A DNA stretch of 64,000 bases, taken from positions 2,693 through 66,692 of the forward strand of contig CAYQJH010000002.1 of assembly GCA_964417755.1 (NCBI GenBank). Direction: 5' to 3'. Shown here one piece after another: positions 53,294 through 54,889 of this stretch (position 1 is its first letter; each line of letters starts with the position of its first letter). The notes under the pieces are model-generated. The model ran no database searches, was not told the origin of the DNA, and worked only from the letters and a program-made list of their open reading frames with translations. The position numbers and the translations under genes were made by a program. This stretch comes from an uncultured Planctomycetaceae bacterium. Its GTDB lineage: Bacteria; Planctomycetota; Phycisphaerae; SM23-33.

Positions 53294-54889
53294 ATGGCGG
53301 AAGAACAGGAGCAAACGGACATCATGAACCAGATCAACAAATGCTCCCAGTGCGGGGCGGAGCTGCCAGCCAGCGTCCCGCGCGGCCTGTGCCCGGCCTG
53401 CCTGCTGAAGTGCGGGCTGGAAACTAATACCGTCGGCTTTACCGGGCAAGACCCAGCCGAGGCAGCCGGGCGAGGTGCGCGGCACGCCGCCAGTTGGACG
53501 CCGCCGACGTGCGATCAGCTTGCGCCGCTGTTTCCTGAGCTGGACATACTGGAGCTGATTGGGCGGGGCGGCATGGGCGCGGTGTACAAGGCCCGCGAGA
53601 AGCAGCTTGACCGCCTGGTGGCGCTGAAGATTCTGCCTCCGGAGATCGGGCGCGATGAGGCCTTCGCCCAGCGCTTCGCCCGCGAGGCGCAGGCGATGGC
53701 CAGGCTCAGCCATCCCAACATCGTCACGATCCACAGCTTCGGTTCACGCGGTAGTGGTAGAAGTGGTAGCACAGGCTTTCCAGCCTGTGAGACAGACAAT
53801 CCGGCTGTGCCGCAACTGTACTTCTTCATCATGGAGTATGTGGACGGCCTGTCTTTGCGGCAGCTGCTGGACGCCGGAACCATCAACCCCAAAGAAGCAC
53901 TGGCCATCGTGCCGCAGATATGCGACGCCCTCCAGTATGCGCACGACCGCGGCATCGTCCACCGCGACATCAAGCCGGAGAACATCCTGCTCAATCGCGA
54001 GGGCAAGGTGAAGATCGCCGACTTCGGCCTGGCAAAACTGGTGGGCTGTGGCGCGGGCGTCCCGCCCGCGAGTGGCGAGGCCGTCTCGGCCTCGCAGGAC
54101 CAGCAACACCGCGAGCAAGATGCTCGCGGCACGCGCGGACAGGATGTCCGCGCCACGCAAAGCATCATGGGCACGCCGCAGTACATGGCCCCGGAGCAGA
54201 TCGACCGCCCGGGGGCGGTCGACCACCGGGCCGACATCTACTCTCTCGGCGTGGTGTTCTACCAGATGCTCACGGGCGAGCTGCCAAAGGCTGCGCCCGG
54301 CCAGCAGGGCATTATGTTCGAGCCGCCCAGCCGCAAGGTGCTCATCGACGTCCGCCTGGACGAGGTGGTTCTCCGAGCCCTGGAGCGCGAACCCGCCCGC
54401 CGATACCAGCAGGTAAGCGAGGTAAGAACGCAGGTAGAGACGATTGTTTCATCGCCACCAGTCCAGCGTTCTGATGCAGAGTGTGGGCAGGTTAGGGTCG
54501 TTCCTGTTGAGACTTGGCACAGGTACGTTGCTGTTGTAGGACGTAGAGGAGGCAAGGCGGTCATCAATTGGCGCGGGGTGATTATTGACGGTCTTGTCAT
54601 GGCTTATGTGTTTGCGCTCGGTGTGGCGATTGCCCATGTCTTGAATCCCCGCCGCGATATATATGTCTGGCAGGCGCTGCTGGCTGGACTGGCGATAGTC
54701 TCGGTCATTCCCATAGCAATCTTCATCGGGCTCAGGCGGCCAATTGACAGGCTCACGCCACTGGATCCTTTGCCACGGATGGCCTCGCCTCCAGAGGCCT
54801 CTGCCGCCGAGCCGCGTCTATCGCGGCTTGCAATCATCGGTGCGATTTGGGCGTGCATTGGGCTATTGGGTCTCTCACTGATCGCGTGA
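53294..54889 (+). CDS. Serine/threonine protein kinase with N-terminal zinc ribbon and C-terminal TM segments
   Basis: CSQCG...CPAC zinc ribbon, GRGGMGAVYKA, VALK, HRDIKPENILL, DFG and APE. Two in-frame insertions of hairpin DNA: 53745-53830 and 54051-54155. Confidence 0.85.
   Translation: MAEEQEQTDIMNQINKCSQCGAELPASVPRGLCPACLLKCGLETNTVGFTGQDPAEAAGRGARHAASWTPPTCDQLAPLFPELDILELIGRGGMGAVYKAREKQLDRLVALKILPPEIGRDEAFAQRFAREAQAMARLSHPNIVTIHSFGSRGSGRSGSTGFPACETDNPAVPQLYFFIMEYVDGLSLRQLLDAGTINPKEALAIVPQICDALQYAHDRGIVHRDIKPENILLNREGKVKIADFGLAKLVGCGAGVPPASGEAVSASQDQQHREQDARGTRGQDVRATQSIMGTPQYMAPEQIDRPGAVDHRADIYSLGVVFYQMLTGELPKAAPGQQGIMFEPPSRKVLIDVRLDEVVLRALEREPARRYQQVSEVRTQVETIVSSPPVQRSDAECGQVRVVPVETWHRYVAVVGRRGGKAVINWRGVIIDGLVMAYVFALGVAIAHVLNPRRDIYVWQALLAGLAIVSVIPIAIFIGLRRPIDRLTPLDPLPRMASPPEASAAEPRLSRLAIIGAIWACIGLLGLSLIA
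54051..54155 (+). repeat. A-family composite hairpin repeat inserted in-frame in the kinase activation loop
   Basis: Four consecutive hairpin modules (GCGCGGGCGTCCCGCCCGCG, CGAGGCCGTCTCGGCCTCG, CGCGAGCAAGATGCTCGCG, GCGCGGACAGGATGTCCGCGC). They encode about 27 extra residues between DFG and APE. Confidence 0.7.

Follow-up and report, generated by a model that had tools for sequence, protein, structure and literature searches.

The subject of this report is a short palindromic insert in a protein kinase gene, which lies in a 64,000-nucleotide stretch (the window) of contig CAYQJH010000002.1 from an uncultured Planctomycetaceae bacterium. The gene (53294-54889, forward strand) encodes a 531-aa Ser/Thr protein kinase of the Hanks type (Pfam Pkinase PF00069, E = 1.4e-49), and the insert occupies about 66 nt of the same strand (53750-53815), adding residues G153-Q174 in frame to the loop between strands beta4 and beta5. 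We conclude with high confidence that this segment is a translated and partly decayed dimer of repetitive extragenic palindromic sequences (REPs) of the GTAG type. The fuller reading, that a GTAG-type REP, originally an inverted dimer of the kind called a REP doublet forming hairpin (REPIN), sits in frame in a surface loop of the kinase, we regard as probable.

An earlier note on this DNA, made from its letters alone, had described an in-frame palindromic insertion that gives the kinase about 20 extra residues relative to typical kinases, and both points are upheld. From FG to LYFF the window kinase has a linker of 24 aa, where 46 of 119 scorable homologs have one of 4 aa, and the peptide had been read correctly as HPNIVTIHSFG[SRGSGRSGSTGFPACETDNPAVPQ]LYFFIMEY, in an open frame that passes through a perfect hairpin with an 8-bp stem and a 4-nt loop. 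The note was also right about the location, which it gave as 53745-53830, though the extent is slightly narrower; and what it called a triplet-repeat tract is indeed a repeat tract (53750-53769), but one made by a tandem duplication of 9 nt rather than a true triplet repeat.

This tract is the REP head region, GGTAG-TGGTAG-AAGTGGTAG (that is, GGTAGTGGTAGAAGTGGTAG, forward strand), in which AGTGGTAG is present twice at a spacing of 9, leaving three copies of GGTAG, and in which the GTAG at 53766-53769 abuts the hairpin. The first arm of the dimer, CACAGGCT-TTCC-AGCCTGTG (53770-53789, forward strand), is the perfect stem-loop. The second, ACAGAC-AATCC-GGCTGT followed by a tail G-CCGC (53792-53813, forward strand), is decayed; it retains five of six pairs, its loop is changed and its tail reads CCGC, and its orientation is ambiguous. 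It nonetheless matches the partner arm of an intact dimer in a related kinase (locus L002, see below) at 10 of 11 positions (GGCTGTGCCGC against GGCTGTGCCAC). One intact arm, one decayed arm and a triplicated head indicate, therefore, that the window copy is not a fresh insertion. Its junctions with the gene, where TTCGGTTCACGC is followed by GGTAG on the 5' side and CCGCAA by CTGTAC on the 3' side, carry no direct repeat.

Other kinds of element were considered and set aside. Elements 70-300 bp long that end in inverted repeats of 15-30 bp and have a target-site duplication form a class to which the insert does not belong, given its size and the lack of a direct repeat at its junctions. A CRISPR repeat is rejected because copies of the unit do not stand in spacer arrays, an intrinsic terminator because there is no T-run and the unit lies inside coding sequence, an intein or intron because the segment, which is translated, falls far short of the size of either, and the hairpin of a diversity-generating retroelement because there is no template repeat or reverse transcriptase nearby.

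Chance alone would place the 20-mer of arm 1, with up to three mismatches, in the window 0.02 times; two copies are observed. The second copy, GGTA-CACAACCTTTCCAGGCTGTG (8828-8851, forward strand), is decayed, with seven of eight pairs and three mismatches to the 20-mer, and it is intergenic, in the gap between an open reading frame (ORF) that ends at 8758 and another that starts at 8894. Perfect hairpins in general (stem of at least 8 bp, loop of 3-4 nt) number 29 in the window, against 3.6 +/- 2.1 in shuffled sequence. The hairpin in the kinase might alternatively be a functional nucleic-acid structure, kept for what it does in mRNA or DNA, for instance by blocking an RNase, pausing translation, binding gyrase or integration host factor, or acting as an internal terminator. 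Arm 1 has been kept perfectly while arm 2 has decayed, and stabilisation of mRNA, termination and the binding of gyrase are roles that have been attributed to intergenic REPs (PMC3733652). However, the content of the loop differs wholly among close homologs, which have no repeat, other repeat families or other numbers of units; the 86-nt stretch as a whole departs only modestly from expectation in its folding energy (z = -1.9); an Rfam scan of the window at gathering thresholds returned no family at the insert, its sole match being a signal recognition particle (SRP) RNA; and nothing ties the hairpin to a regulatory feature. We judge a role of this sort to be quite improbable.

The catalytic motifs of the kinase are all intact (GRGGMGAV at 90, VALK at 109, HRDIKPEN at 223, DFG at 243 and APE at 299), the catalytic lysine being K112, within VALK, and the hinge MEYVDG, residues 180-185. 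The frame is open across both this insert and a second one, in the activation loop, which is described below. An AlphaFold model built from 28 sequences (mean predicted local distance difference test score, pLDDT, 64.7; kinase N-lobe 85-94) places beta4 at residues 146-152 and beta5 at 175-181, with residues 153-174 between them as coil (pLDDT below 50 at 156-167), and gives residues 252-295 of the activation loop a pLDDT below 50. In this model both insert sites are shown as predicted disordered loops between conserved strands, in a protein whose catalytic motifs are intact. There is scarcely any likelihood that the insert is an artefact, with a repeat misassembled into the gene, or that the gene is a pseudogene. 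REP-rich regions are error-prone in assembly, and one related kinase (L126) has a 73-nt gap relative to another (L141); but the same insert is present in an independent ENA assembly from another sample (L001), which encodes an identical protein and has 4 differences to the window in 2248 nt. It is therefore not an assembly artefact, and the open frame and the intact motifs speak against damage to the gene.

The repeat unit in other genomes and its transposase

The unit represented by arm 1, which we call the TTCC type after its loop, was sought in one genome per species, and all copy counts given here are among the matches listed. The earlier note had proposed, as a check, a search of the genome for further copies of the hairpin; the window has the decayed copy at 8828-8851, and the scan of other genomes gave the exact 20-mer at no fewer than 120 loci, in Thermodesulfobacteriota, Planctomycetota, Acidobacteriota and Chloroflexota. 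Some metagenome-assembled genomes (MAGs), such as CAYYCI01 and CAVPIX01, hold several exact copies each. The 4 nt directly 5' of the hairpin are GTGG in 87 copies and GTAG in 31, together 118 of 126 (94%), and the base directly 3' of it is C in 96 of 126. In 51 of the 126 a partner hairpin in inverted orientation, its tail reading C[CT]AC (CCAC or CTAC), stands no more than 80 nt away, across a spacer with a median of 4 nt and of about 2-10 nt in many dimers. The head of the hairpin and its inverted partner are those of a GTAG-tagged REP and of a REP dimer or REPIN.

The window copy conforms to this type in being a short GC-rich stem-loop with an unpaired GTAG at one end. It departs from the extragenic location expected of a REP, being translated; the TTCC family as a whole is extragenic, some 129 of 132 listed copies lying outside convincing genes and only about 3 within them. 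These three are in the L002 kinase, in a RibD-like ORF in L052 and in a 1049-aa ORF in L033. The RibD-like ORF, on the minus strand of an Acidiferrales MAG (L052, 2515-3741), carries its REP in frame, as KIAAPV[AQAFQPVHHPRRHSRKGA]SITWITS, and in-frame copies are therefore not restricted to kinases.

The unit can be tied to a transposase. Two loci, L004 (4602-5122) and L082 (reverse strand, about 2055-2609), each contain an ORF for a REP-associated tyrosine transposase (RAYT) with the hairpin just to its 5' side and an inverted partner, CACAGCCTGGAAAGGC(T/C)GTG-CCACC/CTACC, just to its 3' side; in both, the RAYT gene is flanked by the same REPs, the arrangement known as a REPtron. The L004 and L082 ORFs score 86.7 and 80.4 bits respectively against the NCBIfam model NF047646 'REP-associated tyrosine transposase' (equivalog cut-off 80), while against Pfam Y1_Tnp (cut-off 23 bits) the L004 ORF passes and the L082 ORF falls below, at 17.4 bits. 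A REP-encoded (GG/GS)TGFPACA stands at the N-terminus of 96 of 120 homologs of this transposase type (P0121-P0240), many of which are named RayT at source, and the association of REP and RAYT is therefore general. At its 5' coding end, as annotated, the RAYT gene overlaps the REP hairpin, which is read there in the same frame and into the same peptide as in the insert of the kinase.

A REP family is as a rule confined to one lineage. That four phyla share an exact 20-nt unit and its GTRG head points either to a REPtron that has spread horizontally or to an unusual degree of conservation in the pairing of RAYT and REP.

Related kinases and the history of the two loops

A counterpart of the window insert is found at the same place in a 70%-identical kinase (P0004, locus L002), which there carries GGTGG-CACAGGCTTTCCAGCCTGTG-AATCTGTCG-CACAGCCTGGAAAGGCTGTG-CCACC. 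This is an intact inverted dimer, a complete REPIN-like doublet, and it consists of both arms that flank the RAYT gene, minus the gene. Set against it, the window insert has arm 1 unchanged (20/20), arm 2 decayed and the head in triplicate. The junctions are shared, with FG-xR before GGTRG on the 5' side and CCRC-NN before CTGTAC on the 3' side. A third kinase, L142 (JGI Ga0123329_1000827; 72% identical), also has a REP-type dimer with the same junctions; its first arm is different, and its second arm, GGCTGCGCCAC-AA followed by CTGTAC, is related and stands at the same place as arm 2 of the window.

It might be supposed from this that the segment is an ancestral loop, an old and vertically inherited part of the kinase that is palindromic by accident and contains no inserted element. 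The window kinase, P0004 and L142, which are about 70% identical, do share the 5' and 3' junctions of the dimer, and their second arms are related, reading GGCTG[TC]GCC[AG]C and then CTGTAC. Yet the linker has only 4 aa in 46 of 119 homologs, and the two kinases closest to the window kinase in their core, P0001 (identity 0.87) and P0002 (0.86), are without the segment, whereas the insert-bearing P0004 is further away (0.82). Arm 1, moreover, is identical at 20 of 20 positions to a unit with a canonical GTAG head that occurs, mostly in intergenic positions, at the loci in four phyla described above, and even an old insertion would remain a REP insertion. We consider an ancestral loop unlikely. 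Alignment with homologs, the other check that had been suggested, found no broadly shared insert of like length and sequence: P0004 alone among the 119 has the TGFPACE motif in this linker, and one more kinase, L142, has a related dimer.

What the homologs do share is variability of the loop. The beta4-beta5 linker, where it is not of 4 aa, measures 9-84 aa (73 of 119), and the activation-loop segment, with a full range of 5-54 aa among 120 homologs, is 26 aa or longer in about 85 and of 14-17 aa in 31. Among the longer loops, many look like translated repeats (GQASRLS, GRRPALQ, GETPAL, GQDARAT, GEGKGEG, GDRSNLC...GPVPFS). The P0002 locus (L125) is REP-poor, and the 12-aa loop of P0002, 'AGELAAGG', is at most a possible decayed REP. 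In the window kinase the activation loop is filled as well, by an insert (54048-54156, forward strand) made of four units of a second REP family, with perfect stems of 8-9 bp at 54052, 54075/6, 54109/10 and 54133/4. The two inserts had been called independent, and they do belong to different REP families, one with TTCC loops and the other with AGA/GGA or TCT/TCC loops. It had also been proposed, as one joint claim, that this kinase is either a hotspot for such insertions or unusually tolerant of them; this is supported by its being the only one of some 39 likely genes in the window with REP units inside its coding sequence, from two families, and with the variability of both loops across the family.

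Two comparisons show how such loops have changed recently. L123 and L124, MAGs from a single Planctomycetaceae species, match at every aligned base of a 13.3-kb stretch and differ there only by two changes of length. The first is a seamless in-frame block of 129 nt with four REPs of the second family in the activation loop, present in L123 (6672-6800) and absent from L124 (6672), where the empty site reads ccaGTGG^catgggc; the 7-nt sequence CATGGGC is found at both junctions. The second is a tandem duplication of 107 nt in an intergenic position (L123, 9419-9525). Between the L126 and L141 kinases (about 90% identical; JGI sample Ga0315279) the beta4-beta5 loop varies by a single 24-nt REP unit, and a segment of the activation loop has been replaced. 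The 73-nt gap of the L126 kinase relative to L141 lies in the N-lobe and may reflect a pseudogene or a misassembly. In the L142 kinase an extra insert of 8 aa follows the hinge, LLDAGT[AGGERSRT]ISPKEALA, and P0005 also has an insert there; to judge by these sequences, the region after the hinge is a possible third insert-tolerant site.

Changes of this kind invite the idea that the loops are adaptive switches, the gain and loss of REPs varying the regulation of the kinase in a manner resembling phase or antigenic variation. The seamless presence or absence of four REPs in otherwise identical genomes and the 24-nt unit indel would fit, as would the hypervariability of both loops across the family, one of them being the regulatory activation loop. 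There is, however, no sign of reversibility, of selection on the peptide or of a phenotype; the pattern is that expected from neutral tolerance of mobile repeats in disordered loops; and intragenic REPs occur in many unrelated proteins (PMC3733652), as in the RibD-like ORF of L052. Adaptive switching seems to us improbable.

Returning to the translated REP dimer, the question of how it arrived is finely balanced, and we give transposition by a RAYT about an even chance. The dimer would then, by analogy with IS200/IS605, have been moved as a single strand in the manner called 'peel and paste'; alternatively, it may have come in through template switching onto a REP cluster. Insertions that kept the frame, introduced no stop codon and fell in a dispensable loop would be the ones to survive selection, and the translated peptide may be a neutral or nearly neutral passenger. 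Gain, loss and slippage of units, promoted by the palindromes, could later remodel the loop, giving rise to such features as the triplication of the head and the indels of single units. The history suggested by the sequences may possibly be one old insertion followed by later turnover and losses, or else repeated insertion at a preferred site; the identity of arm 1 at 20 of 20 positions in two kinases with an overall identity of about 70% (82% in the core) argues against simple neutral descent. As a lead only, the GTGG at the empty L124 site points to GTRG as a target or cleavage site.

Several observations count against our interpretation of the insert as a REP dimer that came in as such. The window contains no RAYT gene by a Pfam scan of eight small ORFs and by tblastn with 20 RAYT homologs, and the TTCC type is present there in two copies only, one of them decayed. 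A single ancient insertion, instead of repeated ones, could account for the identical junctions in the window, L002 and L142, and no insertion event is seen at the beta4-beta5 site, for which the closest REP-free relative is about 71-87% identical. The activation-loop indel between L123 and L124, bounded as it is by the 7-nt direct repeat CATGGGC, could be a slippage deletion that involved no transposase. A metagenome scan for the REP followed by the MEY codons gave 0 matches, and the exact combination is thus rare; a scan on the IVTIHSFG codons gave 21 loci, of which 14 are kinases.

A more ambitious proposal would be that the beta4-beta5 and activation loops of kinases linked to extracytoplasmic function (ECF) sigma factors, in Planctomycetota and Verrucomicrobiota, are preferred landing sites for REPs and REPINs, and that REP change in them constitutes standing regulatory variation. 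Glycine codons in these loops may create GTGG target sites. If so, the loops would form a hypervariable system driven by a mobile element in a family of bacterial kinases, and would be more than neutral clutter; we hold this to be unlikely.

Relation to known systems

In-frame GTAG REPs in the Planctomycetes-Verrucomicrobia-Chlamydiae (PVC) superphylum are already published, and the system described here is not of a new kind. Di Nocera, De Gregorio and Rocco (2013; PMC3733652) defined the GTAG- and CGTC-tagged superfamilies of REPs, and reported GTAG REPs from Opitutus terrae, Rhodopirellula baltica and Planctomyces within this superphylum. The GTAG head was noted to degenerate to GTRG, and is GTGG in most GTAG-20 elements of O. 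terrae. Intragenic, in-frame GTAG REPs were most numerous in O. terrae, where they encode GTGVPPV, HGRDARAT and HGQDARAT; some ORFs were hit twice, and one REP-bearing ORF is a Ser/Thr kinase, Oter_3506.

The likeness to these elements is close. The O. terrae families GTAG-17 to -20 are, as here, short GC-rich stem-loops with an unpaired GTAG or GTGG head, they form head-to-head and tail-to-tail dimers and clusters, and they are mostly intergenic, with in-frame copies of 8-30 aa that sometimes occur twice in an ORF (PMC3733652). The peptides GTGVPPV and HGRDARAT are those encoded by the type of insert found here in the activation loop. On the other hand, the peptides of the TTCC unit (TGFPAC/AQAFQPV/AGKPVP) are absent from the intragenic list in Additional file 3 of that paper, a comparison made by peptide list only, and the recurrent filling of the same two loops across a kinase family is seen here and not described in that paper.

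The REPIN-RAYT systems of Pseudomonas and Enterobacteria (Bertels and Rainey 2011, PMC3116915; Nunvar et al. 2010) resemble the present case in their two inverted REPs with a short spacer, and in the flanking of a Y1 (HUH) transposase gene, single-copy there, by the same REPs; REPIN excision events have been reported (PMC3116915). These systems are described as strictly extragenic and lineage-specific, whereas here a translated copy exists and the 20-mer is common to four phyla. A further difference is the overlap, in the present case, between the REP and the 5' end annotated for the RAYT gene, and another is the spacer, which here is as short as about 2-10 nt in many of the dimers.

Rickettsia palindromic elements (RPEs; Ogata et al. 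2000, cited in PMC3733652) are similar in that in-frame palindromic repeats add a peptide and the protein is spared. The short intragenic repeats RPE-4 and RPE-6 belong to the CGTC-tagged class, with whose repeats no transposase is associated (PMC3733652). The likeness is one of behaviour alone, the head here being GTAG rather than CGTC, the host planctomycete-like and the sequences unrelated, and membership of the RPEs is ruled out by the GTAG head and the planctomycete-like genome. RPE-1 is also longer, at about 100-150 bp.

With IS200/IS605 elements (IS608, ISDra2), which have a Y1 HUH transposase, insert 3' of a short target and excise seamlessly, the comparison is an analogy only. Their transposase recognises a subterminal hairpin together with a short adjacent sequence. 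The hairpin here has GTRG beside it, and the empty site in L124 reads ccaGTGG^cat; both fit the same logic, although the REP, unlike these elements, carries no gene.

No specific paper on REPs in kinase loops of Planctomycetes was found in our literature searches. Three features appear not to have been described in the literature searched, namely the repeated occupation of the same two loops across a PVC kinase family, the identity of a REP unit common to four phyla, and the overlap of a REP with the annotated 5' end of its RAYT gene. The kinase shows cleanly that one gene can hold two REP families, and the TTCC type provides one REP unit tied to its RAYT transposase across four phyla. Odd strings such as TGFPAC, GQDARAT and GVPPA in many planctomycete and verrucomicrobial kinases and hypothetical proteins are translated REPs and not functional motifs, an origin that matters for annotation, alignment and structure prediction. 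The two kinase loops accept large foreign inserts, and may for this reason serve protein engineering.

Other repeats and genes of the window

The second REP family, to which the activation-loop insert belongs, has stems of 8-9 bp, loops of AGA/GGA or TCT/TCC, GTGG heads, tails of CCAC, ACAC or GTAC and a period of 24 nt. This period equals 8 codons, and arrays of any length therefore stay in frame. In the activation-loop insert, two reverse units (GTGG head, loops TCC and TCT) are followed by a spacer and two forward units (loops AGA and GGA, tails GCAC and CCAC). The window contains about 27 units in about 12 clusters, and all but the kinase cluster (about 11) lie between likely genes. One of these, at 29784-29892 (units 29787-29887), has the same two-plus-two layout as the activation-loop insert, and its first 45-nt block of two units (29784-29829) is identical to that at 40753-40798. 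The other intergenic clusters are at 3095, 7329, 40756-40832, 46783-46825, 50026, 50215-50257, 57812-57854, 58968-59011, 61492-61534 and 63931-63973.

Directly upstream of the kinase, and outside the element, is a gene for an ECF-type sigma factor (52372-53268, forward strand; Pfam Sigma70_r2 match). The same pairing of sigma factor and kinase genes is found in L125. The SRP RNA matched in the Rfam scan is a bacterial large SRP RNA at 22185-22467 (RF01854, 157 bits).

A third type of hairpin, (C/T)CCCCGCC-TTCC-GGCGGGGG followed by CTTCC, is found in the window at 12435-12454, 21952-21971, 31127-31167 and 43839-43858; some of these are within long ORFs whose coding signal is weak, and the type may be another repeat family or a set of terminators. 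REP units are also found within simple hexamer repeats, AACGGC/GGCAAC at 3040-3160 of the window, and GCCGTT/GTTGCC hexamers adjoin the TTCC REP in L056 (about 4740-4760) and L089 (about 380-440).

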